A DNA stretch of 64,000 nt from a bacterium (GTDB taxonomy: Bacteria > Bacillota > DTU030 > JBMNJR01): assembly GCA_050951765.1 (NCBI GenBank), contig JBMNJR010000015.1:159591-223590 (forward strand), given 5' to 3'. The number at the start of each line of letters is the position of its first letter. The stretch's first letter is position 1. The notes under the pieces were generated by a model that saw nothing but the letters and a program-made list of their open reading frames with translations, ran no database searches and was not told the DNA's origin. Below are positions 10,420 to 41,064 of this stretch, piece after piece. Position numbers and translations under genes: made by a program.

Positions 10420-10589
10420 TGTGCGCTGAAATTGTGGTTAAACTGGCTAAGGCATTAATATAATAGTCATGCTTTAATGAAAATAACTGTGGTTTTCGCT
10501 TTTAATCGGTGCCATATCATTTGTCGAAAGCTATTAGAAGGCGATACAAGATGGTAGAACTATTTGATATAATAACTAATAAATACTAA

Positions 10590-20472: not shown

Positions 20473-21885
20473 ATGTTTAGTTGGCTAGCCAGGAGGTTGG
20501 GTGATGCTGTAGTGGATGACATGCTTCGCCGGATGTATCGCGAACACTATACCCGTAATATTTATGCTCCCATTACTGTTTTTGATAAAGTGGGGTTCCA
20601 TAATTTCATGGAAGCTGAAATGCGGGCGGCTGGGGGAAAGCCGTTGGAGCGGCCTTTAGGCAGCCCGGTTGTGCTTTCTGCTTGGGAACAAATTTTGCTC
20701 AATCCGGTCCATCTATTTCGCTTTCCTACAACTGCCGATACAAGCATTGATACTGGTGTAGTTATCGGCCCCAGGGCTCGAAGGCCATTGCAGTTGCAGA
20801 TTCCCATTATGATAGCCGCCATGTCTTATGGAGGCGCATTGAGCCTGCGGGCAAAAATCGCCTTCGCCCGGGCAGCTACTATGGCAGGTACTGCAACCAA
20901 TTCCGGCGAGGCTCCTTTAATTACCGAAGAAAGGGAAGCGGCAAGTCATTTTATTGGTCAGTATTCACGAAGTGGCTATATGACTGATCCGGATGATCTT
21001 AAACAGCTTGACGCTATTGAAATTCAGTTGGCGCAAGGCGCCCAGGCGGCTGCACCTCTTTCTCAACCCGCCAAATTTATTGGCCGCGAAATGCGAAAGC
21101 GTTTTCATCTGCAACCGGGTCAGCAGCAAAAAGTACCATCACGGCTGCCTGGGATAAATAGTAAGGAAGAGTTTATAAAACTGGTCGGTTCCCTGCGAGG
21201 GGATTACGATGTGCCGGTAGGAGTGAAATTTGCCGCTACCCATCATTTGGAAAAAGAACTGGCCATTATTCTGGAAGCAGGGGTGGATTTTATTGTTGTT
21301 GACGGGTCTGAGGGGGGTACTCATGCCGGCCCGCCCATTCTGCAAGATGATGTTGGTTTGCCCACCCTCCCTGCCCTCATCCGTACAGTCCGGTTTCTGG
21401 AAAACAGCGGCGCCAGGGATGGGGTTAGTCTCATTATTGCCGGCGGTTTATTTACCCCTGGCCAGTTCTTGAAGGCCTTGGCTTTGGGCGCTGATGCCAT
21501 TTATATTGGGACCATTGCTGTTATTGCCATGCTGAGTGAGCAGTTGACAAAAGCAATGCTTTGGGAACCCCCGACCCAGGTGCCTTTGTATACAGGTAAA
21601 TACAAGCAGCAATTGAAAATCGACCAAGGGGCGAACCGTCTCTACAATTTTTTGCGTGCTTCGGTTAAGGAAATGGAATTGGCCACTTATGCTTTAGGGA
21701 AAAAGTCCTTCCGGGAACTGAATAAAACTGATTTAACCACTACGGATCGTGAGCTTGCCCGCGCCGCAGGAATTGGATGGGCATATATGCCTGCAGAAGG
21801 GCGAGATGGTTTTCCCGTGGAACAGGCAGTTGAATTACCTTTTACCAATAAACGGGAAGAAGAACATCCGCCGGTGTTTCACTGA
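20473..21885 (+). CDS. FMN-binding glutamate synthase family protein (GltS central-domain-like)
   Basis: 470 aa ORF; overall resemblance to the glutamate-synthase FMN/TIM-barrel domain family (Gly-rich segment around GLFTPGQFLKALALGADAIYIGT); family-level call only. Confidence 0.75.
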   Translation: MFSWLARRLGDAVVDDMLRRMYREHYTRNIYAPITVFDKVGFHNFMEAEMRAAGGKPLERPLGSPVVLSAWEQILLNPVHLFRFPTTADTSIDTGVVIGPRARRPLQLQIPIMIAAMSYGGALSLRAKIAFARAATMAGTATNSGEAPLITEEREAASHFIGQYSRSGYMTDPDDLKQLDAIEIQLAQGAQAAAPLSQPAKFIGREMRKRFHLQPGQQQKVPSRLPGINSKEEFIKLVGSLRGDYDVPVGVKFAATHHLEKELAIILEAGVDFIVVDGSEGGTHAGPPILQDDVGLPTLPALIRTVRFLENSGARDGVSLIIAGGLFTPGQFLKALALGADAIYIGTIAVIAMLSEQLTKAMLWEPPTQVPLYTGKYKQQLKIDQGANRLYNFLRASVKEMELATYALGKKSFRELNKTDLTTTDRELARAAGIGWAYMPAEGRDGFPVEQAVELPFTNKREEEHPPVFH

Positions 21886-22081
21886 GGGTTGTGGCAAAAG
21901 ATAAGTTTTCCTTAGACTTTATGGTCTGGTGTGCCACTAACCAGATAATCATCCAGATTGGGTGAAGGGTGATAGCAGGAAATCGTGATGATTAATGGAA
22001 TCCATCCTTACCGGCATTTTGGCGGCAGACTGTCCCACAACATTACTTTTCCCTACATCTAAATATCCATGTTGTTTATCA

Positions 22082-22107
22082 AGCCCCGGTTTCACCGGGC
22101 TTTTTTG
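22082..22107 (+). terminator. rho-independent terminator
   Basis: AGCCCCGGT-TTC-ACCGGGCT hairpin followed by TTTTTT; lies about 200 nt downstream of the gltS-like stop. Confidence 0.6.
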
Positions 22108-22262
22108 CTTCAATTAATAGGAACATTTTATATTTGCAGGTTAATTTAGCAATCTCCGGTGCTTGCGAAAGGATTTTAGCTGGTTATTGAGTAATTCATA
22201 CTTTAAGTGGGTTACCGGGCTTTGTGATAAGTCAAGTCTGTTTAACCAGGAGGTGACAAAAA

Positions 22263-23960
22263 GTGTTGCTTGATTTATTAATCAAGAATGTATATGTGTA
22301 TAATTCATACTATAAGGAGTTTATTGTAGAGGACGTAATTATTAAAGACGGACGTTTTTTGTATATGGGGAAAGAATGGGACACAGGTTTAGAGTTTCAG
22401 GAAGTTATAGACGGCCAAGGTTACTATATGATTCCAGGATTAATTGATATCCACCTGCATATAGAAAGCTCAATGACTACACCGTCTCAATTTAGTGCTG
22501 CCATTATTAGACATGGTACAACTACTGTGGTTGCGGATCCGCACGAGATAGCCAACGTTTTAGGGATCGAGGGCATCAAAGCTATGATCGATTCTTATAA
22601 TGGGGATGGGGTAGATATATTTTACGGCATTCCCAGTTCTGTGCCTTCTACTTCGCAAGCATTAGAGACTACCGGTGGCCGGATTGGGTTGGCTGAGGTT
22701 CTTGACCTATTAAAGCTGAAACAGGTTTGCTGTTTGGGGGAAGTGATGAATTGCAAAGATTTAGTAGCAGTTGGGCCTACATTGATTAAACAGATCATTG
22801 GTTTAGTTAAAAAACAAGAACAGCACCTGCCAATAGAAGGACATTGCCCGAAAATATCTGGGTATGAACTGGCAAATTATATATATAATGGGGTTGATTC
22901 AGATCATACTCAACAGACGCCGGAGACCATAGCAGAAAAAATTAAAAATGGCATGTTTATGGAAATTCAGAGCAAATCACTTACACAAGACAATATTACG
23001 TATTTGGTTAAGCATAATTTATTTGAGCATTTTTGTTTTGTAACTGATGATGTTATGGCAGATAAACTGATGGCCGGCCATCTAAATTTATTAATAAAGG
23101 ATGCAATTAAATTGGGGATGGCAGCGGAAGATGCCATTTATGCAGCTACATATACCCCTGCTTTACGCATGGGTATGAAAGATCGAGGCAGTATTGCCCC
23201 TGGAAAAATCGCTGATTTTATTCTCTTACAGGATAAAAATAAGTTTATGATTGATGCTGTGTATAAAAATGGGAAAAAAGTGGAGACCTCCGATAATGGT
23301 GCAGGATGTTATTTTCCAAGACATTTTTATCGTAGTGTCAAGTTAAGCCCTGTTTCGCAACAGGATTTTATGTTAAATGTACCTATGGAGACGGGACGGG
23401 TAAGGTGCAGAGTTATGTATGTTACCCCTGATACTACATTTACCCAAGCGGGAGAAGGGGCATTGAATATTATAAATAATGAGCTGCAATGGGAAGATAG
23501 CGCATATTGTCTGATCTGTGTTTTTGAACGATATACAGGGAGTGGGCGTAAAGGGGTAGGTTTGGTTGGAGGTTCCATAATCAAAGAAGGGGCAATTGCT
23601 ACAACATATGCCCATGATCACCACAACCTGCTAGTCATGGGCAGGAATAAAAGGGATATGGAGGTAGCAGCTAATTGGGTTATTGCAAACCAGGGGGGGT
23701 ATTGTGTAGTTAAGAATGGGCAAGTGATAGCAGCTTTGGAATTACCTATTGGCGGGATATTATCAGCGGAAAATGTGCAGGTAATTGGGAGTAAATTGAA
23801 AAAAATAAGAGTAGCTATGCAGGCAATGGGATATCAGCATCAAAAAGAGATAATGTCCTTTAGTACTCTGTCCCTTCCGGTCAGCCCAAGTCTCAAAATT
23901 ACCGATCAGGGGTTAATAGATGTGAGGAAGCAGGAAATTGTGCAGTTGATAATCGACTAA
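22263..23960 (+). CDS. ade: adenine deaminase
   Basis: amidohydrolase metal site PGLIDIHLHIESS and TTTVVADPHEIANV typical of adenine deaminase; about 565 aa. Confidence 0.85.
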   Translation: MLLDLLIKNVYVYNSYYKEFIVEDVIIKDGRFLYMGKEWDTGLEFQEVIDGQGYYMIPGLIDIHLHIESSMTTPSQFSAAIIRHGTTTVVADPHEIANVLGIEGIKAMIDSYNGDGVDIFYGIPSSVPSTSQALETTGGRIGLAEVLDLLKLKQVCCLGEVMNCKDLVAVGPTLIKQIIGLVKKQEQHLPIEGHCPKISGYELANYIYNGVDSDHTQQTPETIAEKIKNGMFMEIQSKSLTQDNITYLVKHNLFEHFCFVTDDVMADKLMAGHLNLLIKDAIKLGMAAEDAIYAATYTPALRMGMKDRGSIAPGKIADFILLQDKNKFMIDAVYKNGKKVETSDNGAGCYFPRHFYRSVKLSPVSQQDFMLNVPMETGRVRCRVMYVTPDTTFTQAGEGALNIINNELQWEDSAYCLICVFERYTGSGRKGVGLVGGSIIKEGAIATTYAHDHHNLLVMGRNKRDMEVAANWVIANQGGYCVVKNGQVIAALELPIGGILSAENVQVIGSKLKKIRVAMQAMGYQHQKEIMSFSTLSLPVSPSLKITDQGLIDVRKQEIVQLIID

Positions 23961-24064
23961 AAGTGTTTCCGAGCGGAGAACATACATTGCGCGAGGCAAA
24001 TTAGGTGGCGGGAACCGGTAGGTGTATAGTGAAAATAAAAATAATTAAAGAGGGGGAAAGAATC

Positions 24065-24190
24065 ATGGAGTTTTTTGGCTTACTAGCACCGGTTGCTTTT
24101 GTCATTGCTTTGGCAGCACTTGCCCAAGTGGGCACATTAAAAAAGGATGTGGAGCTGTTAAAGGAAAAGTTATCCAAGAATGATTGCTAA
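24065..24190 (+). CDS. small single-TM peptide (41 aa) with charged C-terminus
   Basis: strong RBS GAGGGGGAAAG then ATG; MEFFGLLAPVAFVIALAALAQVG hydrophobic helix followed by a KKDVELLKEKLSKNDC tail. Confidence 0.35.
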   Translation: MEFFGLLAPVAFVIALAALAQVGTLKKDVELLKEKLSKNDC

Positions 24191-24241
24191 GAGGTCATCC
24201 CACCATTTTGGCGCAATAGGTTTCCGGGGTAACACTAAGCC

Positions 24242-24291
24242 TTGACAAAAAAGCTGGTGATAAAGTATATTATTATTAAGTTAGTAACTTA
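24242..24291 (+). promoter_or_regulatory. putative promoter (TTGACA-18-TATATT) with 7-1-7 palindrome TAAGTTAgTAACTTA (likely Rrf2 operator)
   Basis: -35 at 24242-24247, -10 at 24266-24271; perfect palindrome at 24277-24291 between the -10 and the Rrf2 start codon. Confidence 0.4.
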
Positions 24292-24313
24292 TATTTATTT
24301 GCAGGTGATTTAA

Positions 24314-24706
24314 ATGGTCAGCAATAAAACCGAGTATATTTTGAAAATCCTAATTAACCTTGCTCAACGTGAATGCAGTGAGTTTATTTCATCACGGGTA
24401 GTAGCAGATGAGGAAGGAGTACCGCCCAAATTTATGCCGCAGTTGATGTCAAGCTTGGTGAAAAGAGGGTGGGTAGAATCTGTGCGTGGTATTAATGGAG
24501 GCGTTCGTTTGGTGGCGGATCCGCACAAGCTCAGTGTTTTAGATGTAATTGAGTTGGCAGAGGACTCGTTTTTAGTGAAAAAGTGTGCTACCGGCATTTG
24601 TTCTTTTCAAAAACAGGACACTTGTAACCTGTTGCCGTTGTGGCGGAAAGCACAAAAGAATTTGGAAGAGGTTATGGGTAGCATGTCCATAGCTGATTTA
24701 ATCTAG
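24314..24706 (+). CDS. Rrf2-family transcriptional regulator
   Basis: N-terminal wHTH (EYILKILINLAQ...ISSRVVADEEGVPPKFMPQLMSSLVKRGWVESVRGINGGVRL) and Cys cluster (CATGICSFQKQDTC) characteristic of Rrf2/IscR-type regulators. Confidence 0.8.
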   Translation: MVSNKTEYILKILINLAQRECSEFISSRVVADEEGVPPKFMPQLMSSLVKRGWVESVRGINGGVRLVADPHKLSVLDVIELAEDSFLVKKCATGICSFQKQDTCNLLPLWRKAQKNLEEVMGSMSIADLI

Positions 24707-24787
24707 TGAGTATTGATGTATGAACGCATAAGTAAAACTCACAAGAAGGAGCCGATTTATTCCCCTTTGTGAGTTTTACTTTTTTGT

Positions 24788-25707
24788 TTAGTTGCCATCG
24801 GCTGCAGCTGTTTTGGGCAGCTCATGTTTTGTGAAGGCACCTCGTAAGGATGCTTTCAACGTATCGCCCCGTAGTCCGCACCGTAGGGCCTCTAAGGCTA
24901 AAACATCTTGCGGCTGGATATTGCCTAAATTTACGTTAGGTCCGAAACGCAAGATCAAGCTTTGTTGTTGATTTTTTAAGGGTGCTTCCCAAATTAGCGG
25001 AGTAACGTCTGGGAGGCCTTCAATTAGATGTTCAAGGTCTTCTTGGAGTAGCCGCCCTTCTTGGTCGTAAATAACCACTCCTTTCCTTGATTCCCTCCCT
25101 TCGATAATAGTCCCCAGGACACCTGCTTTCAGGTCACTTAAGATTTGTTCTTGCATTCTTTTTCCCGGCAATCGTTCTTGCGGGTCTTTTTTCCCTACTT
25201 CACTTATTACTTGCAGGCCGTAATCTTGAGCTTGCCGAATAGCCTTAAGACGCACGGCATGGGACATGTCGATAGTGCCATCGGATACTTCCACATGGGT
25301 AAACCCTAATTCAACTGCCCGTTTAAGAAAGCTTTTTAGTTTGTCTTGCAGAATAGCTATTTCCAAAAATGTACCGCCGGGGAAAATATCTACACCATAG
25401 GACTTGACTAACTGGATTTTTCCCCGGAGCAGGTTTGTGGAGTAAAAAGCTGAAGTGCCAAAGGATAATTTGATCATATCGATATAGTCAGATGCAAGGT
25501 TTAATAAATCTTGTGTATCGGTAGTCCCAGTCCTTTGTCTATGACCATGGTGAGTCCTGTTGGCCGTGGTTTATTTTTTTGCCCCGGAACCGGAAAGTCA
25601 AAAACTTCATGCCAAGCCTTGTGGTTCAAGAGTAGAAGTAGAATCCCTCCTTTATTGTTTAGTTGGGTTTCTTTACGCATTCTATTCTTCGGGATGGCTA
25701 ATGGCAT
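24788..25707 (-). pseudogene. comA: (2R)-phospho-3-sulfolactate synthase ComA, disrupted by a 1-nt frameshift
   Basis: two adjacent minus-strand ORFs (25707-25501 and 25477-24788) in different frames together span the full ComA fold. The N-terminal part ends ...PRPTGLTMVIDKGLGLP; the second frame continues ...DTQDLLNLASDYIDMIKLSFGTSAF...PGGTFLE, matching archaeal/bacterial ComA. The frames switch near 25517-25525. Confidence 0.7.
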
Positions 25708-25958
25708 CTTGTCTCTTTTATTTTATTATTATGTGTTTGGTGATGGTTATATTGGTTTGGAGTAAACTATGTGGAAAATTATTCTCAATAACATATTTAT
25801 TTGGTTATTTGTCCATTACTAATGCATATTTCCAGAGAAAGGAGTTAAAGGTTTTATAGCGAACTCTAATTGTAATAACTGTCATAGGGAGGTGTATTAC
25901 ACCATATAAGGATTGAGAGGAGTAAATATTATGTTAATCCGAGGGAGGCGGATGATAA

Positions 25959-26267
25959 ATGCCGAAGAAGCATGATGCGATCTTGATCAATGAAAAAGAC
26001 AATGTGGCAGTAGCTATTAGGGAACTTGTTGCGGGCGAACAAGCTGTTGTCAGAGGGGAGTCGACGGTAACAGAAATACCGGTTATACAGCCTATTCCAT
26101 TTGGCCATAAGTTTGCGCTGAAAGATATTGAAACCGGAACCAAAGTACTGAAATACGGTGCAGTCATAGGCAAGGCAATTAAGGATATCAAACAAGGGGA
26201 GCATGTGCACGATCATAATATTGAAGGTCTGAGAGGGAAAATCAATGGGGGCAAGGAGGGGCAATAA
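25959..26267 (+). CDS. UxaA-family hydro-lyase small subunit (SAF domain; SuyA-like)
   Basis: SAF/altronate-dehydratase N-domain pattern DNVAVAI..L..GE.V...IPFGHKFALKDI..G..V.KYG..IG.A...I..GEHVH.HN; RBS GAGGGAGG. Confidence 0.75.
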   Translation: MPKKHDAILINEKDNVAVAIRELVAGEQAVVRGESTVTEIPVIQPIPFGHKFALKDIETGTKVLKYGAVIGKAIKDIKQGEHVHDHNIEGLRGKINGGKEGQ

Positions 26268-27413
26268 ATGAAATTTTGGGGTTATACTCGGCCTGACGGG
26301 CAGGTTGGAATTAGAAATCATCTTTTGGTTATTTCAACTGTTGTGTGTGCCAATGGAACGGCAAAAAAAATTGCCGATCAGATTATGGGGGCAGTTGCCA
26401 TAACTCACGAACACGGCTGTGGTGCTCATTATCCTGCTGATGTTGGGCAAACCCACAGGACATTGGTCGGGTTTGGTAAAAACCCCAATGTGGGAGCTTG
26501 TATTGTGGTAGGGTTAGGGTGTGAAGGAGTAAAGCCGGCTAAGGTAGCTGCTGATATTGCCCAATCGGGCAAGCCGGTTGCCTGTATTGTCATTCAAGAG
26601 GAAGGCGGTACGGTAAATGCCATTAGCCGGGGTGCTAAGGTGGGGCGAGAAATGCTAGAAGATCTTTCTCGGCAGAGAAGGGAAGAACATAACTTAGAGA
26701 AGCTTATTTTAGCATTGGAGTGTGGCGGTTCTGATACCACTTCGGGAATTGCGGCTAACCCTGCCGTTGGCGTGGCCAGCGACCTATTAATTAATAATGG
26801 GGGCACTTCCATTCTTTCGGAAACTACGGAACTAGTAGGGGCAGAGCACATCTTGGCCGAACGGGCTGTCAATGAAGAAGTAGCCAAACAAATATTAGAT
26901 GTAGTTGCCCGGGCGGAAACCCATGGACATAACTTGGGCTATAATATGAGCAATCTTGCTCCGGGAAACAGGGCAGGAGGTCTATCTACAGTTGAGGAAA
27001 AGTCTTTAGGGTGTGTGCATAAGGCGGGAAGTGCAATTGTGCAGGAAGTGATTGATTATGCCTATATACCGACAAAGCAGGGTTTAATTATTATGGATAC
27101 GCCCGGCTATGATGTGGAATCAATTACCGGTATGGTTGCCGGCGGGGCGCAAGTAGTAGTATTTACCACAGGAAGGGGTACTCCGGTGGGTTGTCCTATT
27201 GCTCCGGTGATTAAAGTTACAGGCAATACTTCCACCTTCCAGAAGATGCAAGACAATATTGATATTAATGCCGGGAAGATTGTGGATGGCGTGAACACAG
27301 TCCAAGAGGTAGGTGAAGAGATTTTTGCGGAAATATTAGCTGTAGCCAATGGTAAGTTGACCAAAGCGGAACAATTTGAATTAGGCGAATTTGCTATTTG
27401 GCGGCTAGCATAA
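26268..27413 (+). CDS. UxaA-family hydro-lyase large subunit (altronate dehydratase C-domain-like; SuyB-like)
   Basis: WGYTRPDGQVGIRNHLLVI...C..GTA N-terminus typical of the UxaA C-terminal catalytic domain; start adjacent to the small-subunit stop (translational coupling). Confidence 0.8.
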   Translation: MKFWGYTRPDGQVGIRNHLLVISTVVCANGTAKKIADQIMGAVAITHEHGCGAHYPADVGQTHRTLVGFGKNPNVGACIVVGLGCEGVKPAKVAADIAQSGKPVACIVIQEEGGTVNAISRGAKVGREMLEDLSRQRREEHNLEKLILALECGGSDTTSGIAANPAVGVASDLLINNGGTSILSETTELVGAEHILAERAVNEEVAKQILDVVARAETHGHNLGYNMSNLAPGNRAGGLSTVEEKSLGCVHKAGSAIVQEVIDYAYIPTKQGLIIMDTPGYDVESITGMVAGGAQVVVFTTGRGTPVGCPIAPVIKVTGNTSTFQKMQDNIDINAGKIVDGVNTVQEVGEEIFAEILAVANGKLTKAEQFELGEFAIWRLA

Positions 27414-27517
27414 AATAATTATTCGGGTATACTCAGTATATGTTTCAGTGCATATTTGTACCGCTATGGGCTTAGTTATTCGCATCGTAAATTTACTTGG
27501 CAAGGAGGTGTGAAGGC

Positions 27518-28639
27518 GTGAAAATTACCGATGTTGAGGCTATTTGGGTTAGTCTTTCGGAGATGAAACTGATTGCCGACTCAACACAACAGGCGGTAAT
27601 TGTTCGCATCAAGACCGATGAAGGTATTGAAGGGATTGGCGAGACTCATACAGCACCTTATGTAATTAAAGCAATAATTGAAACCGATTCATCTGGGATA
27701 GTAGCCCAGGGCATTCGTTCTCTTTTAATTGGCGAGAATCCTTTAGATATTGAACGGTTGTGGCATAAAATGTATTATTTTACATCACGGTTTGGAAGAC
27801 GGGGGGCTGTCCTCAATGCTATCAGTGCTGTTGATATAGCGCTCTGGGATCTTTTAGGCAAGTATACTGGCTTGCCTGTCAGTACTTTATTGGGCGGCCG
27901 TTTCCGGGAGGAAGTTTCAGCTTATGCCAGTGTGTTAATGCCGGACACTCCGGAGGAAGCGCGGGATCTGGCCTTAGAGATTAAGGCGCAAGGTTTTCAA
28001 GCGGCAAAATTTGGTTGGGAAACCTTAGGCTCCGATTTGGTTGCTGACCGAAAAAGGGTAGAAGCCATTCGAAAAGCTGTGGGCAGCGGTTTTGCAGTGA
28101 TGATTGATATTGGTTATGGGTTAGAGGTTCGCCATGCTATCCGTTTAGCACGCATACTAGAGGAGTACGATATTGCCTTTTTAGAGGAACCTTTATCTCC
28201 CGATAACTTGGCAGGTTTTGCTTGCCTCAGTGCAGCTACTACTGTGCCCATTGCAACCGGTGAGAAGGAAACAACCAGATTCGGGTTTCTGGAGCTGATG
28301 GAGCGGGGAAAAGTAAGTATTATCCAGCCGGATATTGCCCGCGCCGGAGGTCTTACGGAAGTGAAGAAAATTGCACTTTTAGCCGATCTAAAAGGAGTGG
28401 AACTTATTCCCCATTGTTGGAGTAATGATATTCTGGTGGCTGCTACAGTTCATTTTATCGCTGCCAGACCGGCTCATTGCTATTTAGAATACTGCCTGCT
28501 GGATAATCCCATCCGGCGGGAGCTGATCAAAGAGCCGCTTAGTGCGGTTAACGGGAAGGTGAGTGTCCCCAAAAGACCGGGATTGGGAATAGAGCTCAAT
28601 GAAGAAGTCCTTGCTAAATTAACTATCACCCAGTTCTAG
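27518..28639 (+). CDS. enolase-superfamily enzyme (mandelate racemase/muconate lactonising family; dehydratase or epimerase)
   Basis: MR/MLE N-terminal capping domain and barrel with metal ligands (IDIGYG..., EEP, ...DIARAGG); GTG with CAAGGAGG RBS. Confidence 0.8.
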   Translation: MKITDVEAIWVSLSEMKLIADSTQQAVIVRIKTDEGIEGIGETHTAPYVIKAIIETDSSGIVAQGIRSLLIGENPLDIERLWHKMYYFTSRFGRRGAVLNAISAVDIALWDLLGKYTGLPVSTLLGGRFREEVSAYASVLMPDTPEEARDLALEIKAQGFQAAKFGWETLGSDLVADRKRVEAIRKAVGSGFAVMIDIGYGLEVRHAIRLARILEEYDIAFLEEPLSPDNLAGFACLSAATTVPIATGEKETTRFGFLELMERGKVSIIQPDIARAGGLTEVKKIALLADLKGVELIPHCWSNDILVAATVHFIAARPAHCYLEYCLLDNPIRRELIKEPLSAVNGKVSVPKRPGLGIELNEEVLAKLTITQF

Positions 28640-28800: not shown

Positions 28801-30198
28801 ATGAACAGTCAAAGCAACACAAATGCACAGGAATATATTGCCGGTTTAGTCAGGAGAGCAAGGGAAGCCCAGAAGATAGCTAACGGATATAGCCAAGAAA
28901 GAGTAGATAAACTTATGACGGCAGTATGCTGGGATATTGTAAAAGATGGTCCTGCCCAGGAAATATCAAGACTTGCTGTGGAAGAATCAGGTATGGGTAA
29001 TTATGAATCGAAATATGCGAAATTAATGGTTAAGTTGAGAGGCGCCCTGAGGGATATGAAAGGGGAAAAGTCCGTAGGGATAATTGAAAGAGATGAAAGT
29101 AAAGGCATAGTAAAGATTGCTAAACCTGTGGGAGTAGTGGGTGCCATAATTCCCTGTACAAATCCTGAGGCAACACCTGTGTTAAAGGCCATGATGGCTA
29201 TCAAAACACGGAATGCAGTTATTTTTGCACCACATCCGCGCACAAAGAAAACTAACACCTTTATTGTAAACCTGATGCGCCAAACGCTAAAACGGTATGG
29301 TGCCCCCGAAGACCTGCTGATACCAATAGAGGAACCAACTATGGAAATATCAAAAGAGCTAATGCGCCAGTGTGATCTTATATTAGCCACAGGCGGGAGC
29401 GGGATGGTTAAAGCAGCATATTCGTCAGGCACACCTGCTTATGGAGTAGGAGTAGGTAATGCAGTGGTAGTAGTGGATGAAACTGCAGATTTGAAAGATG
29501 CGGCATATAAGGTAATGCGCAGTAAAACATTTGATTTAGCGACAAGTTGTTCTACGGAAAACTCATTGGTTATACAAGAAAGTGTATATGATCAATTCTT
29601 GGAGCACCTGCAAGCACAAGGCGGTTATCTTGTCAATGCTGCGGAAAAAGAACTGCTGGAAAAAGGAATGTGGGTTGACGGGCATTTGAGCCGGGATATT
29701 GTGGCTCAATCTGCACAGACTATCGGTAAGGTGGCGGGAATAAATATCCCTGCAGACAAGAAGTTTATCATGGTGGAAGAAACGGGAATTGGTCCAGGAT
29801 TTCCGTTTTCCGGCGAAAAGCTATCTGTGGTGGTAACTCTATACAAGTATAAAGAATTTGGGGAAGCCATAGCGAAGGTAAACAAAATTACGGCGTACCA
29901 GGGAAGTGGTCACTCCTGCGGCATACATTCAACCGATAATGAGCGGATAATTGAGTTGGCATTGAATACTTTTACCAGCCGTGTGATGGTAAGGCAGCCA
30001 CAGTGTCTTGCCAATAGCGGCGCGTGGACAAACGGCATGCCTATGACATTGAGCCTTGGGTGTGGAACATGGGGCGGCAACATATCTTCCGATAACATCA
30101 CCTGGCACAAACTGATAAACACCACCTGGGTTTCCTTCCCCATTGAAAATAATCAGCCAACAGATGAAGAACTATTTGGTGAGATTATGAAAAAATAA
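28801..30198 (+). CDS. CoA-acylating aldehyde dehydrogenase (EutE/PduP-like)
   Basis: aldehyde dehydrogenase fold with catalytic Cys in TSCSTENS and nucleotide-binding GAIIPCTNP; about 465 aa, typical of acylating ALDHs. Confidence 0.75.
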   Translation: MNSQSNTNAQEYIAGLVRRAREAQKIANGYSQERVDKLMTAVCWDIVKDGPAQEISRLAVEESGMGNYESKYAKLMVKLRGALRDMKGEKSVGIIERDESKGIVKIAKPVGVVGAIIPCTNPEATPVLKAMMAIKTRNAVIFAPHPRTKKTNTFIVNLMRQTLKRYGAPEDLLIPIEEPTMEISKELMRQCDLILATGGSGMVKAAYSSGTPAYGVGVGNAVVVVDETADLKDAAYKVMRSKTFDLATSCSTENSLVIQESVYDQFLEHLQAQGGYLVNAAEKELLEKGMWVDGHLSRDIVAQSAQTIGKVAGINIPADKKFIMVEETGIGPGFPFSGEKLSVVVTLYKYKEFGEAIAKVNKITAYQGSGHSCGIHSTDNERIIELALNTFTSRVMVRQPQCLANSGAWTNGMPMTLSLGCGTWGGNISSDNITWHKLINTTWVSFPIENNQPTDEELFGEIMKK

Positions 30199-30323
30199 TG
30201 ATGCAATTAATATGGTAAAGCAGCACCTGGTGGGGTGCTGCTTTTAATTTAGTCGGTAAATTTGTGCTGAAAGTTTTTTGGGAGAATAGAAATTATTAGT
30301 AGGCGAGGATTGTGCAGGAGGGG

Positions 30324-31163
30324 ATGTTTTTGAAGATATATATTTCGGCGGATATGGAAGGGATAACCGGAGTTACCGGTACGGCGGAAGTAACGGAAGG
30401 GAAGGGCTATTATCGGCGGTTTTGTTCATTGATGACTGCGGACATTAATGCCGCTGTAAGGGGTGCTTTTGCCGCCGGCGCTACTGAGGTATTAGTTAAT
30501 GATGCCCATTGGGGGATGAGAAATATAATTATCGAAGAGTTGGATCCTCGGGCTCAATTATTATCCGGCTCCCATAATAAACCGATGATGCAGGGGTTGG
30601 ACGCGTCTTTCGCAGCGGTTTTTTTCATCGGTTATCATGCCATGGCTGGCACAGAAGGGGCTGTAATCAACCATACTCTTTTGGGGCGGGAAATTACCGG
30701 TGTGTGGATAAACGGTAGGAAAGTGGGTGAGTTGGGGCTTAATGCTGCTTTTGCCGGTCATTACCAGGTTCCCGTTGTTATGGTAACCGGTGATGACAAA
30801 GTCGCTCAAGAGGCAAAAGCATTCTTAGGCCGGGTGGAGACGGTTATTGTCAAAGAAGGGATAGAACGGTGGGCGGCTAAATGCTATAGCCCTCAGCTAA
30901 CCGCCCAATGGATTGAAGCAAAGGCTTATCGGTCATTGCAAAATATAAAACTTTATCACCCATGTAGTGTTATGTGCCCGGTGGAGCTTACAATAGAGTT
31001 CTTGTCTACCAGTGCAGCGGAAATTGCAACATTGATGCCGGGTGTGGTGAAAAAAACACCGCGGAAGGTGAGTATAACTGGGCGACATATGTTAGAAACT
31101 TATAATATATTGCGGGCAATAATGATATTGAGCGCTTCTGCCAGTGACCAATGGTATGGTTAG
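30324..31163 (+). CDS. M55-family D-aminopeptidase (DppA-like)
   Basis: MFLKIYISADMEGITGV...NDAHWGMRN signature of peptidase family M55. Confidence 0.75.
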   Translation: MFLKIYISADMEGITGVTGTAEVTEGKGYYRRFCSLMTADINAAVRGAFAAGATEVLVNDAHWGMRNIIIEELDPRAQLLSGSHNKPMMQGLDASFAAVFFIGYHAMAGTEGAVINHTLLGREITGVWINGRKVGELGLNAAFAGHYQVPVVMVTGDDKVAQEAKAFLGRVETVIVKEGIERWAAKCYSPQLTAQWIEAKAYRSLQNIKLYHPCSVMCPVELTIEFLSTSAAEIATLMPGVVKKTPRKVSITGRHMLETYNILRAIMILSASASDQWYG

Positions 31164-31342: not shown

Positions 31343-32386
31343 GTGTTAAACAGGTACAGAAAAACATTTGTCTTGGCTTTGGTGTTTGTGTTGGCAATGG
31401 TGACTTTGGTGGGTTGTTCCGGTGGTTCCTCTGAGCCTAGCGGCGGAGAAGGGGAGGAAAAACCGCAAGAGTGGAGAATTAATATTGCCACCGCTACCAC
31501 TGGCGGTGCTTATTATCCAATCGGTAATGCTTTAGCTCAGATCTGGAGCAAAAATGTTCCCGGCGTCCGGGCTGCTGCCCAAGCTACCGCAGGAACGCCT
31601 CAGAATATTGAACTGATGCAAAATGGAGAAGCGGATGTTGCCATTGGTCAAAATGGTATTGCGTATTATGCCTATAATGGCACTGGCACCTATGAAGGAA
31701 AAGCGGTACCTATGATTCGCGGTATGTTGGCTCTCTACCCCAATGTTATGCACATGATAGTCCGGACAGACGCAGGGTTATCTTCAACTGCTGATTTAAA
31801 AGGCAAAAGGTTCGTCCCCGGCCAAGTAGCCAGCGCCACTGAAATTAACAGCCGAGAAATTTTGCAGGTCTACGGCCTGAATTATATGTCTGATCAAGGT
31901 GAAGTGAATGTGAATGCAGACTTTGTTGGTTACAACGAAGCGGTGGACCTGATGAAGGATGGGCACGTGGATGCCACCATGATCGCTGGCGGTGTTCCCA
32001 CTGCTGCGGTAATGGACGTTTTATCCACCGGCGTTGGCACCCTCATTTCCTTAGAAGAAGATAAGATCCAGGCAATCTGTGATAAATTCCCCTGGTATTT
32101 CCCCATTACCGTGCCTGCCGGGTCTTATCCTAACCAGGATGAGGACATTCATACAGTTGCCGTCTCCAATATGCTGATCGTGCCTGAGGATATGGATGAA
32201 GATCTGGTCTACAATCTGACTAAGGCAGTCTATGACTACCACGATGATCTTGTAGCTGGCCACCAGGCTACCAAGGACACTACTCTGGAACAGTCCATGG
32301 ACGGTATGATCATCCCGCTGCATCCAGGGGCGATCAAGTATTTTGAGGAGCATGGCGTTGATATGAGTGGTGTACCTAAAGCTTAA
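31343..32386 (+). CDS. TRAP transporter solute receptor, TAXI family (lipoprotein)
   Basis: signal peptide with lipobox LVGCSG; TAXI-type periplasmic binding fold (ATATTGGAYYPIGNALAQIW). Confidence 0.8.
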   Translation: MLNRYRKTFVLALVFVLAMVTLVGCSGGSSEPSGGEGEEKPQEWRINIATATTGGAYYPIGNALAQIWSKNVPGVRAAAQATAGTPQNIELMQNGEADVAIGQNGIAYYAYNGTGTYEGKAVPMIRGMLALYPNVMHMIVRTDAGLSSTADLKGKRFVPGQVASATEINSREILQVYGLNYMSDQGEVNVNADFVGYNEAVDLMKDGHVDATMIAGGVPTAAVMDVLSTGVGTLISLEEDKIQAICDKFPWYFPITVPAGSYPNQDEDIHTVAVSNMLIVPEDMDEDLVYNLTKAVYDYHDDLVAGHQATKDTTLEQSMDGMIIPLHPGAIKYFEEHGVDMSGVPKA

Positions 32387-32484: not shown

Positions 32485-34446
32485 ATGAAAAATACTAAGA
32501 ACCTAGATTCATTACAAGTACAGGCAGTTCCCGCTACCAAAGTAGCGGAAGAAATGTTGGAGAAGTTTGATACTGAGTCCCGCTTTCGCAAATATACCGG
32601 TTTTTGGGCTAAAGCAGTAGCCGTTATTGCTATTTCCATGTCTTTATTTCACTTTTATACAGCCGGTTTTGGCACGCTGATGGCCATGAAGCAACGCAGC
32701 ATTCACCTCACTTTTCTACTGAGTTTGGCCTTTATTTTGTATCCTGCCACAAGGAAGTCTCCGAAAAACAGACCTTCATATTGGGATCTCTTATGGGCGG
32801 TCATTGGTGTCATTTCAAGCATGTACTTGTTTTTCTTTTTTGATGCCTTTAGCATCAGGGGTACTGCAATTTCCAGAGATATTTTCTTTGGTGTCCTAAC
32901 CATAGTTGCGGTATTGGAAGCAGCGCGCCGTACTGTTGGGAAGGAACTTCCAATCCTGGCTTTAATCTTTTGGCTTTATGGACTCTTCGGTGACATGCTA
33001 CCTGGTGTTCTTGGGCATACCGGATTTTCATTTAGACGTATTGTCTACCATCTGTATCTTTCCTCAGAGGGAATTTTCGGCATAGCGCTGGGCGTGTCAG
33101 CCACCTATATCTTCCTTTTCATTCTCTTCGGTGCTTTCCTGGGTGAGACTGGGATGGCAGACTTTATTAACAGGTTCTCTATGGCTGTAGCCGGCCGTTC
33201 ACCGGGCGGGCCGGGGAAAGTGGCCATTGTTGCCAGTGGTTTACTCGGTACAATTAACGGCAGTGCAGTAGCTAACGTTGCTACCACAGGAGCCTTTACC
33301 ATCCCGCTGATGAAGAGTGTAGGCTATCGCCCCACCTTTGCAGGTGCCGTGGAGGCTGTAGCTTCTACTGGCGGCCAGATAATGCCTCCGGTTATGGGTG
33401 CTGCTGCCTTTGTTATGGCTGAGTTTCTGGGCATGAAATACAGTGAAATCATGATTGCCGCAGTTTTACCAGCCATGCTTTACTATATCTCCGTGTTTTT
33501 GGTTGTGCACCTAGAGGCTCTTAAGACCGGTTTGGTGGGCTTGCCTAAGGAACAGCTTCCGGAAATGAAAACATTGTTACGGGAACGAGGCCACTTGGTT
33601 ATACCTTTGATTGTTATTGTATATTTACTACTATCAGGTAGAACTCCTCTCAATGCTGCATTCTATGGCATTATTTCCGCTATAGCAGCCAGTTGGCTGC
33701 GGAAGGACACCCGTCTTACTTTCACCGGTTTGCTGAAAGCTTTGGAGGGCGGAGCCCGTAGTGCAGTGAGTACCGGTATTGCCTGTGCTGTGGTGGGAAA
33801 TATTGTGGGTATCACCAGCCTAACCGGGCTTGGCCTTGTGATAGGTGATAATATTATCTCTTTGGCAGGCGGCAATATCTTTATGACGTACTTCCTCGCC
33901 ATGGTCGTGAGCATTATTTTAGGTATGGGATTACCGACTACTGCCTGCTACATTGTGGCTGCCACCATAGCCGGTCCGGCTCTAATTAAGCTCGGTGTTG
34001 CTCCTCTCTCAGCCCATATGTTCGTCTTCTACTTTGCCTGCCTTTCCAACCTTACCCCACCAGTGGCTCTTGCGGCCTATACCGGTGCAGGCATTGCCGG
34101 AGCAAATCCTTCGCAAGTGGGTTGGACGGCCTTCCGGATGGCTTTGGCTGGATTTATTATCCCGTTCATCTTCGTTTACAATCCGCAGCTACTCCTGATG
34201 GGTGGTAGCACATTGGAGATCTTGCAGGCTTGCATTACTAGCATTATTGGCGTTGTGGGTCTGGCAGGTTTTGTGCAAGCTTACTTTATGGGAGATCTCA
34301 ACTCAATCCAGCGTGGGATCCTTTTCGTCGGTGCTTTGACATTGATGGTCCCTGGTTTGCTTAGCGATGTAATTGGTTTAGCCTCACTGGCAATTATTTT
34401 CTTTTGGCAAAAAGCAGCTACCGGTCATCGGAGCGTTAACGCATAA
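32485..34446 (+). CDS. TRAP transporter fused 4TM/12TM permease
   Basis: 653 aa polytopic membrane protein with the TRAP DctQM-fused permease architecture; follows the TAXI receptor. Confidence 0.85.
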   Translation: MKNTKNLDSLQVQAVPATKVAEEMLEKFDTESRFRKYTGFWAKAVAVIAISMSLFHFYTAGFGTLMAMKQRSIHLTFLLSLAFILYPATRKSPKNRPSYWDLLWAVIGVISSMYLFFFFDAFSIRGTAISRDIFFGVLTIVAVLEAARRTVGKELPILALIFWLYGLFGDMLPGVLGHTGFSFRRIVYHLYLSSEGIFGIALGVSATYIFLFILFGAFLGETGMADFINRFSMAVAGRSPGGPGKVAIVASGLLGTINGSAVANVATTGAFTIPLMKSVGYRPTFAGAVEAVASTGGQIMPPVMGAAAFVMAEFLGMKYSEIMIAAVLPAMLYYISVFLVVHLEALKTGLVGLPKEQLPEMKTLLRERGHLVIPLIVIVYLLLSGRTPLNAAFYGIISAIAASWLRKDTRLTFTGLLKALEGGARSAVSTGIACAVVGNIVGITSLTGLGLVIGDNIISLAGGNIFMTYFLAMVVSIILGMGLPTTACYIVAATIAGPALIKLGVAPLSAHMFVFYFACLSNLTPPVALAAYTGAGIAGANPSQVGWTAFRMALAGFIIPFIFVYNPQLLLMGGSTLEILQACITSIIGVVGLAGFVQAYFMGDLNSIQRGILFVGALTLMVPGLLSDVIGLASLAIIFFWQKAATGHRSVNA

Positions 34447-37290: not shown

Positions 37291-37616
37291 TTTTCCTTAT
37301 TTTGCCTATCTTTTTCGCCTTCCTTTTGCTCCTGAACTGCAATTTTGTTCTGATAACTTTCTACGCCAATGGCTGCGTCGGGACAAATTCGTTCACATTG
37401 ATGGCAGAGAATGCAGCCTGCGGCGTCCACTTCTACAGAAGGAGTGCCGTAAACGCAGAGTCGATCCGACCAACCGATAACGTTTACCGGGCATACCTCA
37501 ATACAGAGGCCACAGCCTTTACACAGTCCGGGATATACTGTCCAACTACCGCCCTTTGGTACTTGGGAACGGAATCCGGCAAAGGTTTTTGTGTCTTGAG
37601 CCATGTTGTGTCCCAT
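37287..37616 (-). CDS. 2-oxoacid:ferredoxin oxidoreductase delta subunit (2[4Fe-4S] ferredoxin)
   Basis: two Cys clusters (CKGCGLCIEVCP, CILCHQCERICP); AAGGAGGG RBS; ATG overlaps the gamma-subunit TGA (ATGA coupling). Confidence 0.8.
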   Translation of the reverse strand: MGHNMAQDTKTFAGFRSQVPKGGSWTVYPGLCKGCGLCIEVCPVNVIGWSDRLCVYGTPSVEVDAAGCILCHQCERICPDAAIGVESYQNKIAVQEQKEGEKDRQNKEN

Positions 37617-38296
37617 CAGGCGCGCCCTCCTTTCACAGTGGCAGTATGTTTACGGTAGAGCTCTTGACCGGTGGTAAAGGCTTTTTCATTTAATTCCGCC
37701 AGCTCCGGTTTGGCGGCGAATTTATCCTTAAATTTAGCCTCCATTGCCTTTTTGACTATTTCCGGCTCCAGCACTTGGCTGGCAGCAATAATAGCTCCCA
37801 AGATAATCACATTAAAAACCCGGGGGGTTAATTGATCCTTGGCAACTTGAGCTGCCGGGATACCTATTACCTTTGGAACCTTAGGCGGCGTAATAGGTTT
37901 TCCCGGTTGGGTGCCCACCTGGTTGGCAAAAGCCTCCGGAGCTACTGTATCCCAACTTTGGATGCCGATGCTTAGATCTCCTATCTCCGGCGGTTTAATG
38001 GCGGAGCTGTCGTAAATGAAAAGAGTAGCAGGAGTAAGGTATATTTTAGTTCGCTCTACAGCCCGTTGACTCAAGGCGACAATAATATCTGCTTGTTTAA
38101 ATTTAGGAGAACCGATCTGAGCATTACTAATTTGGACAAAGGCGATGGAAACGCCTCCCCGCTGTTCAACTCCGAAATTGGGAATATAGATAGCCTCTTT
38201 GCCGGCAAGGTAAGCGGCTTCTGCCAGGATTTCACCAACCGCTTGCACCCCTTGCCCTCCTTCACCGGCTAAAGCAATTTTAGTTATTTCTTTCAT
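37616..38296 (-). CDS. 2-oxoacid:ferredoxin oxidoreductase gamma subunit
   Basis: KIALAGEGGQGVQAVGEILAEAA...PNFGVEQRGG signature of POR/KOR gamma subunits. Confidence 0.85.
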   Translation of the reverse strand: MKEITKIALAGEGGQGVQAVGEILAEAAYLAGKEAIYIPNFGVEQRGGVSIAFVQISNAQIGSPKFKQADIIVALSQRAVERTKIYLTPATLFIYDSSAIKPPEIGDLSIGIQSWDTVAPEAFANQVGTQPGKPITPPKVPKVIGIPAAQVAKDQLTPRVFNVIILGAIIAASQVLEPEIVKKAMEAKFKDKFAAKPELAELNEKAFTTGQELYRKHTATVKGGRA

Positions 38297-39079
38297 TTAA
38301 TGACCCTCCTTTTCCCCAACAGGCACTTTTATCTCTCCCACAGGAAAGACTTTGGCCATTTTTTCCTTGATATAGTCAAGGGTTTCTTGGGCATTTGTTC
38401 TCCAGTTGGTGGGACAAGAAGATAGAACTTCAAGAAAAGACAGCCCCCGTCCTTCCAATTGATTGTTTAAGGCGCGACGCATAAAATTTTTTAACTGGGG
38501 ATAATTGAGTATGGTTCCTCTTGCTATATAGGCATTAGCGCTGGAAGTGGCAGCTACCATTTCCGGACCTAAAATTGGGGAACCGGTAAGATTTATATCG
38601 CGGCCGTAAGGTGATGTTTCCGTAGTTTGTTCAGGTAAGGTGGTTGGAGCCATTTGACCGCCGGTCATAGCATAGACAGTATTGTTGCAAAGTATGGTAG
38701 TGATTTTTTCATTGCGAATTGCCGAACTGACCAAGTGTTGTAGGCCAATGGCATAGCCACCGCCATCTCCCATATAAGCAATACAGATGGCTTCCGGTGT
38801 TGCTCGTTTTACTCCGGTGATTACCGGAATAGTACGGCCGTGGTGGGTTTGAATGCTGTCAGCATTGAAAAAATCCCAACTAAGGAGAGAACAGCCGATA
38901 TCACAACCGTAAACAACACGGTCGAGGATGTTCAACTCGTCGATGACCTCTCCCAGTGCTTTTAGAATTATGGGATGGCCGCAACCGGGGCAAAATTTGT
39001 GGGGTTTAGTATCCCGCCGCCAAGTATATGGCATGTTTTCCACATGGGTCATAATCCTTTCTGGCTCAAGTTTTGTCAT
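38297..39079 (-). CDS. 2-oxoacid:ferredoxin oxidoreductase beta subunit (TPP-binding)
   Basis: N-terminal FCPGCGH motif and TPP-binding GDGG...N region typical of OFOR beta subunits. Confidence 0.9.
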   Translation of the reverse strand: MTKLEPERIMTHVENMPYTWRRDTKPHKFCPGCGHPIILKALGEVIDELNILDRVVYGCDIGCSLLSWDFFNADSIQTHHGRTIPVITGVKRATPEAICIAYMGDGGGYAIGLQHLVSSAIRNEKITTILCNNTVYAMTGGQMAPTTLPEQTTETSPYGRDINLTGSPILGPEMVAATSSANAYIARGTILNYPQLKNFMRRALNNQLEGRGLSFLEVLSSCPTNWRTNAQETLDYIKEKMAKVFPVGEIKVPVGEKEGH

Positions 39080-39094
39080 CAGGTTTCACTCCTT

Positions 39095-40180
39095 TTAGGA
39101 AAGTAGAGCCCGGACTTTTTCTTGTACTTCTGCCGAGGTAATCCCGACCCCTGGGCGCAATAGGGTATATATGGGAACATTGAGCCCGTAAAGCGCTTCT
39201 TTTACTTGGCTTAATAGTTGACCGTAAGCTGATTCTACGACTAAAACTCCTTCGCTTTTTTGGGCAGCTTTACGTATCGGATCTGCGGGAAAAGGCCGCA
39301 TTGTTATGGGGCGAAAATAGCCAATGGGCAGATCCTGCTGCATCAGTTTTTCTTGGGCATCCCTGGTTGCCCGAGAAACCACACCGTGAGCGACTAAGGT
39401 AAGTGTACATTGTTCCGGACCTTTTTCTTCCCATTCAATGATATCAGGTGTGAATTTTTCATAGTCTTTGATATGTTTTTCCAGAACTTCCAACAGTTCT
39501 TCTTCAATACTGTAGGTATTCCGATGGTGGGCGGGCGGCCGATCTTGACCGGGAATACCCGGTTTCAGGACTAATTTTTCGCTGGGAACCAGTTGGATGT
39601 TTCGATCTTGGGGGTTATAAAGAGTGACCGGTTCCCGCATCTTGGCTTGGTAGCCGTCTGCCAGCACAAAGGTGGGAAAGCGGTATTTCCAGGCAGTATT
39701 CATGGCTTTGATGGTGTAATCAAAGAGATCTTGATGGGAAGCGCTGGAATAGACAATCCGTAATCCTTCCCCATTGGCTCCAAAGCAGGTCAATCTGGTT
39801 TCCTGTTGCGAATAGATAACAGTGGCTGTGGAAGGGCCTCCCCGCTGCGTAATGATCCACACAGCAGGAATCCGCATCATCTCTGCCATGGAAATAGACT
39901 CTTGCATTAAGATATTGCCCGGGCCGGCAGTAGCAGAAAAAGCCTTCTTGCCTGTCATAACTCCCCCTAAGGTAGCAAAACCGGCTGAGATTTCATCTTC
40001 TGTCTGTAAAAAACCCTTGTTGAATTTGGGAGCTAAACGGGTCCAATAGTGCATAATTTCATTTTGCGGTGTAATAGGATAACCATACATAATATCAGCC
40101 CCGGCTGCCAGGGCCCCCCAGGCCACAACTTCATTGCCGGTAACAAACATACGCTGTTCTTTGGTAACGATATCTACCAT
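39095..40180 (-). CDS. 2-oxoacid:ferredoxin oxidoreductase alpha subunit
   Basis: about 360 aa alpha subunit (pyrimidine-binding domain) upstream of beta-gamma-delta; substrate (pyruvate / 2-oxoisovalerate / 2-oxoglutarate) not assignable from sequence alone. Confidence 0.9.
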   Translation of the reverse strand: MVDIVTKEQRMFVTGNEVVAWGALAAGADIMYGYPITPQNEIMHYWTRLAPKFNKGFLQTEDEISAGFATLGGVMTGKKAFSATAGPGNILMQESISMAEMMRIPAVWIITQRGGPSTATVIYSQQETRLTCFGANGEGLRIVYSSASHQDLFDYTIKAMNTAWKYRFPTFVLADGYQAKMREPVTLYNPQDRNIQLVPSEKLVLKPGIPGQDRPPAHHRNTYSIEEELLEVLEKHIKDYEKFTPDIIEWEEKGPEQCTLTLVAHGVVSRATRDAQEKLMQQDLPIGYFRPITMRPFPADPIRKAAQKSEGVLVVESAYGQLLSQVKEALYGLNVPIYTLLRPGVGITSAEVQEKVRALLS

Positions 40181-40880: not shown

Positions 40881-41064
40881 TCCCGCCTGCAGTGTTTTTC
40901 TTTAGTAATTAGGCTAATTAAGTGGTTTTATGCATGGGAGATTAATAATGGATGTGAAATTTTCAAAGGCGTTAGTGAAAGGGAAAGGTGTTATTATTTT
41001 GGGCGGCGAATAGGAAATTTGTGACTTAAATTAATATCGGCAGTTGATAAAGGAGCAGGAAGTA

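Follow-up and report, generated by a model that had tools for sequence, protein, structure and literature searches.

This analysis concerns a 64-kb stretch of bacterial DNA, hereafter the window, in which a broken comA gene for phosphosulfolactate synthase is divergent from, and 480 bp distant from, a pair of genes encoding an SAF-domain small subunit and a large catalytic subunit of the UxaA/GarD superfamily. These are probably two unrelated things lying side by side, i.e., a recent comA pseudogene and a split UxaA/GarD-type dehydratase that heads a catabolic operon. An earlier note on this DNA had joined them, together with an adjacent Rrf2-family regulator, into one sulfolactate/sulfonate-related locus; the open reading frames (ORFs) that it listed for the regulator, the two halves of comA and the two subunits were all recovered at the positions given in Table 1.

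ComA condenses phosphoenolpyruvate and sulfite to (2R)-phosphosulfolactate, which is the first step to sulfolactate. In the window, comA is on the minus strand and is split by a one-base deletion between positions 25514 and 25529, and an uninterrupted frame for the full TIM barrel is absent, as the break comes after about 37 codons. Three-frame translation gives ...GLTMVIDKGLGLP IHKIY* in frame A, where the same stretch reads ...GLTMVIDKGLGLPIHKIY* to the stop, and ...DTQDLLNLASDYIDMIKLSFGTSAF in frame B, in agreement with the two frames and the single-nucleotide deletion described in the earlier note; the reading frame past the break is shifted by -1 against the one before it, so one base is missing. 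Alignment of both ORF halves to the Pfam ComA profile (PF02679), a check named in that note, leads to the same result: the 229-aa 3' ORF matches profile positions 38-243 with 232 bits, while the 68-aa 5' ORF matches positions 3-22 with 20.6 bits in a different frame. The true start of the gene is likely to be TTG at 25629 (MNHKAW...), because the closest homologue, P0122, begins MNHKAWREVFDFPVPG, which matches the start there. Three repairs of equal length fit the interval, i.e., CTA[A]CC at about 25521, CC[N]GAT, and TGGG[G] at 25526-25528, of which CTA[A]CC GAT fits the homologues best (GLGLTDTQD vs. GLGLTETRD in relatives). At 25526-25528 the DNA alignment has TGGGG in the three nearest homologues and TGGG in the window, and a contraction from G4 to G3 is one possible origin of the deletion. 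The statement that no homopolymer is present at the site is correct in that there is no long run, but it misses this short one.

The repaired comA encodes 280 residues and aligns end to end and without gaps with nine intact homologues of 272-295 aa, with 74-75% identity to the closest two (Bacillota ComA). It passes the curated family thresholds, which are 25.2 bits for PF02679 and 280 bits for TIGR03849, the NCBIfam model of phosphosulfolactate synthase; on the latter the repaired protein scores 334.9 bits over the whole profile (positions 1-241) and the 3' ORF alone 279.9 bits. The likeness to ComA/YitD (PDB 1qwg of M. jannaschii and 1u83) extends over the whole profile, and the alignment with 1qwg covers residues 13-248. 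Judged by these matches, the identity of the repaired protein as a ComA is not a chance resemblance. About 100 invariant columns are common to the repaired comA and the nine homologues, and since both fragments keep every one of the columns invariant among these homologues and carry no second lesion, the lesion, if real, is recent. The position of the break corresponds to residues 26-27 in M. jannaschii ComA, directly after the first beta-strand. Loss of one base just after the codons of this strand (GLTMVIDKGLGL) would shift the frame and end translation at the stop that is reached about 5 codons past the deletion. The only long ORF left is that of 229 aa (starting MIKLSF), in which the TIM barrel would lack its first strand and helix. 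NCBI and JGI annotation call this truncated protein as a gene. Presumably, no active phosphosulfolactate synthase would be made from this comA.

The broken comA is most likely a real, recent pseudogene, because the identical break is found in three other public assemblies. The protein collection contains the large subunit of the window on five contigs, which derive from three SRA runs and two IMG assemblies; comA is spanned by three of these, and the sequence through the break is identical to that of the window in all three (Logan SRR31061296, SRR31066179 and IMG 3300062814). Different assemblers, applied to at least two SRA runs and one IMG data set, arrived at the same broken gene, which bears out the earlier preference for a real pseudogene over an error. 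The contig from SRR31061296 differs from the window at 1 of 12,225 bases, away from the break, and is therefore a separate assembly and not a copy. Among 5.8 billion clustered proteins there was no full-length allele of the window comA, the next best match being 75% identical. Two points count against this part of our interpretation: all the assemblies are probably from one sequencing project and platform, so that a systematic platform error could be common to them, and a second, intact comA could lie elsewhere in the genome, beyond the window.

Accordingly, one may ask whether the missing base is an artefact of sequencing or assembly, with an intact comA in the living cell; we regard this as unlikely. 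Such an artefact would fit a source that is a metagenome-assembled genome, data sets with neighbouring accessions and probably a common platform, two fragments that are perfectly conserved and a candidate site in a short G run, which is GGGG in relatives. The run has only 3-4 bases, however, and is not error-prone on short-read platforms, and an artefact would also have to explain the agreement among assemblers and data sets, the missing full-length allele and the absence nearby of the usual partners of comA, a PF03601 gene and comB. The gene that follows comA in the closest relatives encodes a PF03601 transporter (SuyZ family) or ComB and never belongs to a UxaA-like pair, whereas the window comA is broken in frame and has neither partner nearby; tblastn searches of the window with ComB, two PF03601 proteins and SuyZ gave no match. 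This absence would be consistent with decay of the pathway, and with comA most likely a recent pseudogene and none of its usual partners in the window, the lineage appears to be losing sulfolactate synthesis. In B. subtilis, yitCD have been inferred to be involved in phosphosulfolactate synthesis, and sulfolactate, a major spore solute, accounts for about 5% of spore dry weight (PMC517825).

Genes of the PF03601 family ('putative sulfate exporter family', YeiH type) were observed after or near comA in the closest relatives at L025 1032-2078, L026 1517-2539, L016 8979-10022, L017 4955-5995 and L019 7363-8409. The SuyZ of a genuine suyAB locus is of the PF03601 family too (25% identity), and the repeated occurrence of PF03601 genes with comA in Bacillota may point to a step that exports sulfolactate or sulfite.

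The gene pair on the other side contains the SAF, GD_AH_second (136 bits) and GD_AH_C (325 bits) domains by which the superfamily is recognized, and the structure match of its large subunit is E. coli GarD (6u7l, E = 8e-68). The earlier note had likened the pair to (2R)-sulfolactate sulfo-lyase SuyAB. The layout itself agrees, as SuyAB of Paracoccus pantotrophus/versutus and Cupriavidus pinatubonensis is of the same superfamily and also consists of an SAF protein (about 100 aa) and a large subunit (about 385 aa). This layout is not specific to SuyAB, because it is found in sugar-acid dehydratases as well: SuyAB is not the only split enzyme, and a split L-fuconate dehydratase has been proposed (Watanabe et al., 2019; PMC6336799); furthermore, a split SAF/large-subunit pair lies inside a fucose-utilisation cluster of Bacillus sp. 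S3. To obtain SuyB sequences, a noisy machine-read alignment from the supplement of Watanabe et al. (2019) served as the initial tblastn query against plasmids and was replaced by real plasmid-record sequences for the comparison; UxaA and GarD references were those of E. coli K-12. An authentic suyA-suyB-suyZ locus was recovered on pTAV3 of Paracoccus versutus and an authentic hpsN-hpsO-...-suyAB locus (with hpsNOP) from C. pinatubonensis, while the SuyAB-like pairs in Rhodococcus and Methylobacterium adjoin Ldh_2-type dehydrogenases and a TauE exporter. In contrast to these SuyAB loci, the window carries no suyZ, TauE, hpsNOP or Ldh_2 genes.

Phylogeny, sequence identity, cysteine content and model scores all place the pair outside SuyAB. 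In a neighbour-joining tree of 27 sequences with 200 bootstraps, which bears on the earlier question of whether the pair clusters with SuyAB or with sugar-acid dehydratases, the four SuyB or SuyB-like sequences, including those of P. versutus and C. pinatubonensis, form a clade with 100% bootstrap support that does not contain the window protein. The latter belongs to a separate clade (98%) of proteins from anaerobic Bacillota and Synergistota, which is also apart from single-chain UxaA and GarD, so that the refuting condition in the earlier note, firm clustering with sugar-acid dehydratases rather than SuyAB, applies only by half. Its large subunit is 54-75% identical to the members of this clade, 47% to the Bacillus split protein, 38% to GarD, 34% to UxaA and 33-37% to SuyB; likewise, identity of the SAF subunit is 54-55% with small subunits from its clade vs. 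39-44% with SuyA. The cysteines of the motifs VVCAN, HGCG and GLGCE are found in the window protein, its clade, GarD, UxaA and the Bacillus protein, while all four SuyB sequences have DDxSNA, YGRLQ and GI--E in their place; a fourth cysteine (xCGxSD; KCG(E/G)SD region) is common to SuyB and the window protein. Cysteines C27, C51, C85 and C152 of the window protein align with those of GarD and UxaA, and an active-site region of the SuyB type, in which three of the four superfamily cysteines are absent, is not seen in it. The four cysteines are kept across the superfamily except in SuyAB and have been proposed as iron ligands (Watanabe et al., 2019; PMC6336799). The pair is most likely a dehydratase, because these proposed ligands are kept. 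On the GarD model TIGR03248 (cut-off 730.85) the window protein scores 258.4 bits, the Bacillus split pair 243 bits and true SuyB 124 and 152 bits, and equivalence to galactarate dehydratase is thus not reached by the window protein.

Of the pairs with a context that suggests a function, that of Bacillus sp. S3 has the highest identity to the window pair (47%), and it has the split layout, all four cysteines and a similar GarD-model score (243 vs. 258). In the tree, however, it is apart from the window clade and joins SuyB at 86% bootstrap, and the window operon is without the sugar-pathway genes for a lactonase, a sugar dehydrogenase, a KDG-type aldolase or an FAH hydrolase. As far as can be read from these sequences, the window pair is a dehydratase-type split enzyme and not SuyAB, and it falls into a third split clade, so far uncharacterised, in which the dehydratase-type cysteines are retained; a literature search on this clade gave nothing useful. 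By analogy with its family, the pair would convert a 2-hydroxy acid to a 2-oxo acid through alpha-proton abstraction and beta-elimination of water.

Downstream of the pair, the operon continues with genes for an enolase-superfamily enzyme, a CoA-acylating aldehyde dehydrogenase, an M55 peptidase and the two components of a TAXI-TRAP importer, so that it has seven products (Table 1). With the pair at its head, this TRAP-linked operon appears to be a module for the catabolism of an organic acid or amide that the cell imports. The aldehyde dehydrogenase, which has the same CoA-acylating fold as SucD and AdhE, is the product with a link to sulfonates. Its best NCBIfam family is the SauS model NF047625, on which its 566.9 bits are below the equivalog cut-off of 600; the resemblance is real, because the controls SucD of C. 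kluyveri and acetylating acetaldehyde dehydrogenase (ACDH) score only 409 and 376 bits, respectively. The clade of this enzyme is 70-85% conserved across many fermentative (amino-acid- and sugar-fermenting) Bacillota. A 71%-identical homologue in Crassaminicella thermophila (CP042243.1; L034 3108-16051) occupies the IolA slot of a complete myo-inositol cluster that has IolG, IolC, IolJ, IolB, IolD and IolE equivalents and is sulfonate-free, and another clade member sits after a class-III aminotransferase. The C. thermophila arrangement suggests that its homologue is a CoA-acylating malonate-semialdehyde dehydrogenase variant of the inositol pathway. Malonate semialdehyde has the same shape as sulfoacetaldehyde. 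As the homologue fills the IolA slot, the SauS-like score would reflect a small acidic aldehyde substrate and not sulfonates as such, and the likely substrate of the window enzyme is malonate semialdehyde or a similar small acidic aldehyde. A literature search on acylating malonate-semialdehyde dehydrogenase in anaerobic inositol catabolism gave nothing useful.

For the enolase-superfamily (MR/MLE) protein, which public gene calls start at 27518, the best NCBIfam match is galactonate dehydratase with 212 bits (cut-off 311), and the best PDB match is 3sjn with 312 bits; a literature search on 3sjn gave nothing useful. The M55 peptidase scores 241.8 bits on the NCBIfam DppA model (cut-off 430). 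The nearest metagenomic relatives of the MR/MLE protein (45-47% identity; L041 7430-12047 and L047 5581-11113) are flanked by amide hydrolases of the AstE/AspA-type, ceramidase-like and Amidohydro_2 families and by a GntR regulator, neighbours that hint at an N-acyl or amide substrate rather than a sugar acid. At L058 10001-11106, an MR/MLE relative matches in two overlapping pieces (10001-10294 and 10246-11106), which suggests a frameshift in that contig too.

Three points weigh against a dehydratase operon that has nothing to do with sulfonates. The deep nodes of the tree that join the split clades have bootstrap values of 10-28%; a split enzyme that retains the cysteines could, from sequence alone, still catalyse desulfonation; and the aldehyde dehydrogenase is closer to SauS than SucD or ACDH are (567 vs. 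409 and 376 bits), a thin thread to sulfonates.

The neighbourhoods of relatives were compared with that of the window. The adjacency of comA and the pair was found in none of the examined loci related to either gene, and no ComA was seen beside the relatives of the pair. In a Dethiobacter metagenome-assembled genome the pair relatives are near pyridoxal phosphate-dependent enzymes and a sigma-54 activator; on a second contig they are accompanied by aminotransferases, 2-hydroxyacid dehydrogenases, a second split pair, TctABC and a LarA-like protein, and on a third by a four-subunit 2-oxoacid:ferredoxin oxidoreductase, an ADP-forming acyl-CoA synthetase, a GntP permease and a LarA-like protein. 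Scanning genome contigs with the large subunit yielded 5 loci with 49-56% identity and scanning metagenomes with the MR/MLE gene yielded 66 loci with at most 48% identity, none of which (0/5 and 0/66) has the other operon genes; a syntenic sister genome of the window was not found in these scans. A search of the 64 kb for a sulfite exporter, TauE, sulfolactate dehydrogenase (SlcC, ComC), dihydroxypropanesulfonate (DHPS) dehydrogenase and comB found none, and no sulfur-metabolism genes were found in the remainder of the window, which is housekeeping (recO, glyQS, ppdK, dnaG, sigA, def, an oxidoreductase operon, Lon, mraW and a penicillin-binding protein). Because the adjacency is absent from relatives, the partners are absent and the remaining window is housekeeping, the proximity of the pair to comA looks coincidental, as does its proximity to Rrf2, and the notion of a sulfolactate/sulfonate-related locus loses its ground.

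Tandem split SAF + UxaA-like pairs were observed at L009 7683-10733 and L010 1343-4393, with large subunits 67% and 36% identical to that of the window; they adjoin aminotransferases, 2-hydroxyacid dehydrogenases, RidA, TctABC and a LarA-like gene.

Control of the locus by the Rrf2 protein, which the earlier note had considered plausible, finds no support in the sequence. The protein scores 109.5 bits on Pfam Rrf2 and has the cysteines Cys91-x4-Cys96-x7-Cys104, a C-terminal three-cysteine motif being typical of Fe-S-binding Rrf2 proteins, and it is below all equivalog cut-offs (IscR, CymR, NsrR and RirA). Its gene is convergent with comA and has a strong promoter-like site of its own at 24242-24271 (TTGACA-18-TATATT, promoter scan). 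The only motif in common, the 11-mer ATATTTATTTG, is upstream of both Rrf2 and the pair, but with 4 matches found vs. 4.2 expected it is at chance frequency and gives no evidence of a shared Rrf2 operator. No inverted repeats were found in the promoter regions of Rrf2 and the pair, and an Rfam scan of 23900-26100 had no match at E <= 1 and hence no riboswitch or leader RNA for the pair or comA. The inverted repeat between the convergent stops of Rrf2 and comA (Table 1) is probably a bidirectional terminator.

That the genes form a sulfonate unit, in which the pair is a SuyAB-type lyase, comA once supplied phosphosulfolactate and Rrf2 regulates both, is somewhat less likely than an artefact at the comA break. 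The split layout of the pair, the best match of the aldehyde dehydrogenase to SauS (567 vs. the cut-off of 600, and well over the SucD and ACDH controls) and the divergent comA only 480 bp away would all fit. Against these stand the SuyB clade that leaves out the window protein, the three cysteines that are missing from every SuyB and occur in the window protein, the sugar-acid dehydratases with the same layout, the sulfonate-free iol cluster around the aldehyde dehydrogenase homologue, the lack of an operator in common with Rrf2, the absence from relatives of the comA/pair adjacency and the absence from the window of a SuyZ/TauE exporter, an SlcC/ComC dehydrogenase and comB. In addition, ComA is biosynthetic and would not feed the lyase directly, because its product needs ComB first.

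A variant without SuyAB is more doubtful again: the operon would break down C3-/C2-sulfonates by means of the split lyase and the enolase-superfamily enzyme, acting on the two sulfolactate enantiomers, with the SauS-like dehydrogenase and the TAXI-TRAP importer completing the route. If this were true, the loss of comA would mark a switch from making to scavenging sulfolactate. Least probable of all is a comA that functions despite the break, by -1 recoding or as two fragments assembling into a split enzyme; the lesion-free fragments with all their invariant residues and the needed -1 shift, the usual direction for programmed frameshifting, would allow it, but no X XXY YYZ slippery heptamer or downstream structure motif is found at the site, every examined homologue is single-frame with no conserved recoding site, no ribosome-binding site (Shine-Dalgarno) precedes the internal ATG at 25477 and the 5' fragment would supply only about 40 residues, so that both programmed -1 frameshifting and re-initiation at this ATG were rejected.

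With a comA pseudogene beside an unrelated dehydratase-type operon as the preferred interpretation, the pseudogene is ordinary gene decay, and the main value of the case is caution in annotation. Split UxaA-family pairs in anaerobes are easily mislabelled as SuyAB or 'altronate dehydratase', and the aldehyde dehydrogenase clade is labelled 'sulfoacetaldehyde dehydrogenase' by JGI; such SuyAB and sulfoacetaldehyde dehydrogenase labels could inflate metagenome estimates of sulfonate cycling. The motifs VVCAN, HGCG and GLGCE tell true SuyB from dehydratase-type split enzymes and could be used for rapid screening. Both the split clade and its operon are uncharacterised and give no sign of exceptionality.

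Table 1. Coordinates of the features at the comA/split-pair locus in the 64-kb window
Feature	Position	Strand	Basis
Rrf2-family regulator	24314-24706	+	ORF list
Inverted repeat, 22-nt arms, 86% complementary, between convergent Rrf2 and comA stops	24723-24788		Repeat search
comA 3' ORF, 229 aa, from ATG 25477	24788-25477	-	ORF list
comA 3' part, frame B, DTQDLLNLASDYID... to stop	24788-25522	-	Pfam ComA and TIGR03849
comA 5' fragment, frame A, reads through GLTMVIDKGLGL, premature TAA at 25503-25501	25501-25629	-	Pfam ComA positions 3-22
comA 5' ORF, 68 aa, other frame	25501-25707	-	ORF list
Frameshift site, one base missing	25514-25529	-	Three-frame translation; DNA alignment with L025, L026 and L016
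SAF small subunit of heteromeric UxaA/GarD-superfamily enzyme, 102 aa	25959-26267	+	ORF list; Pfam SAF 43.2 bits
Large UxaA-like catalytic subunit, 381 aa, GD_AH_second + GD_AH_C, keeps Cys27, Cys51, Cys85 and Cys152	26268-27413	+	ORF list; Pfam, NCBIfam, structure match
Enolase-superfamily (MR/MLE) protein, acid-sugar-dehydratase-like subgroup	27497-28639	+	Pfam MR_MLE_N, MR_MLE_C
CoA-acylating aldehyde dehydrogenase, SauS-like	28801-30198	+	NF047625 566.9 bits
M55 (DppA-like) metallopeptidase	30312-31163	+	Pfam Peptidase_M55 321.7 bits
TAXI-type TRAP transporter, NMT1_3 binding protein	31343-32386	+	
TAXI-type TRAP transporter, fused DctQM permease	32485-34446	+	

A horizontally acquired island was rejected as a description of the region, since its GC content is flat at 0.39-0.50 across 18-37 kb. 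The 250-bp leader of the SAF gene has two pairs of Shine-Dalgarno-like direct repeats within 25837-25953 (GAAAGGAGTTAA / GAGAGGAGTAAA and AGGGAGGTGTAT / AGGGAGGCGGAT) and a 14-codon ORF that overlaps the SAF start, and no Rfam family matches this leader. Further away, an 824-aa ORF at 41044-43518 with N6_Mtase, Eco57I and MmeI-type methyltransferase matches probably encodes a type IIG restriction-modification enzyme; its neighbours on the opposite strand are a 224-aa ORF with no Pfam match (40206-40880) and a 2-oxoacid:ferredoxin oxidoreductase operon (37616-40180). In 20473-24190, 5' of Rrf2 and on the same strand, there are three ORFs. One encodes a stand-alone glutamate-synthase-type flavin mononucleotide protein and another an adenine-deaminase-like amidohydrolase, whose 412 bits do not reach the equivalog cut-off of 472.5; the remaining one has 61 aa and a hydrophobic core.

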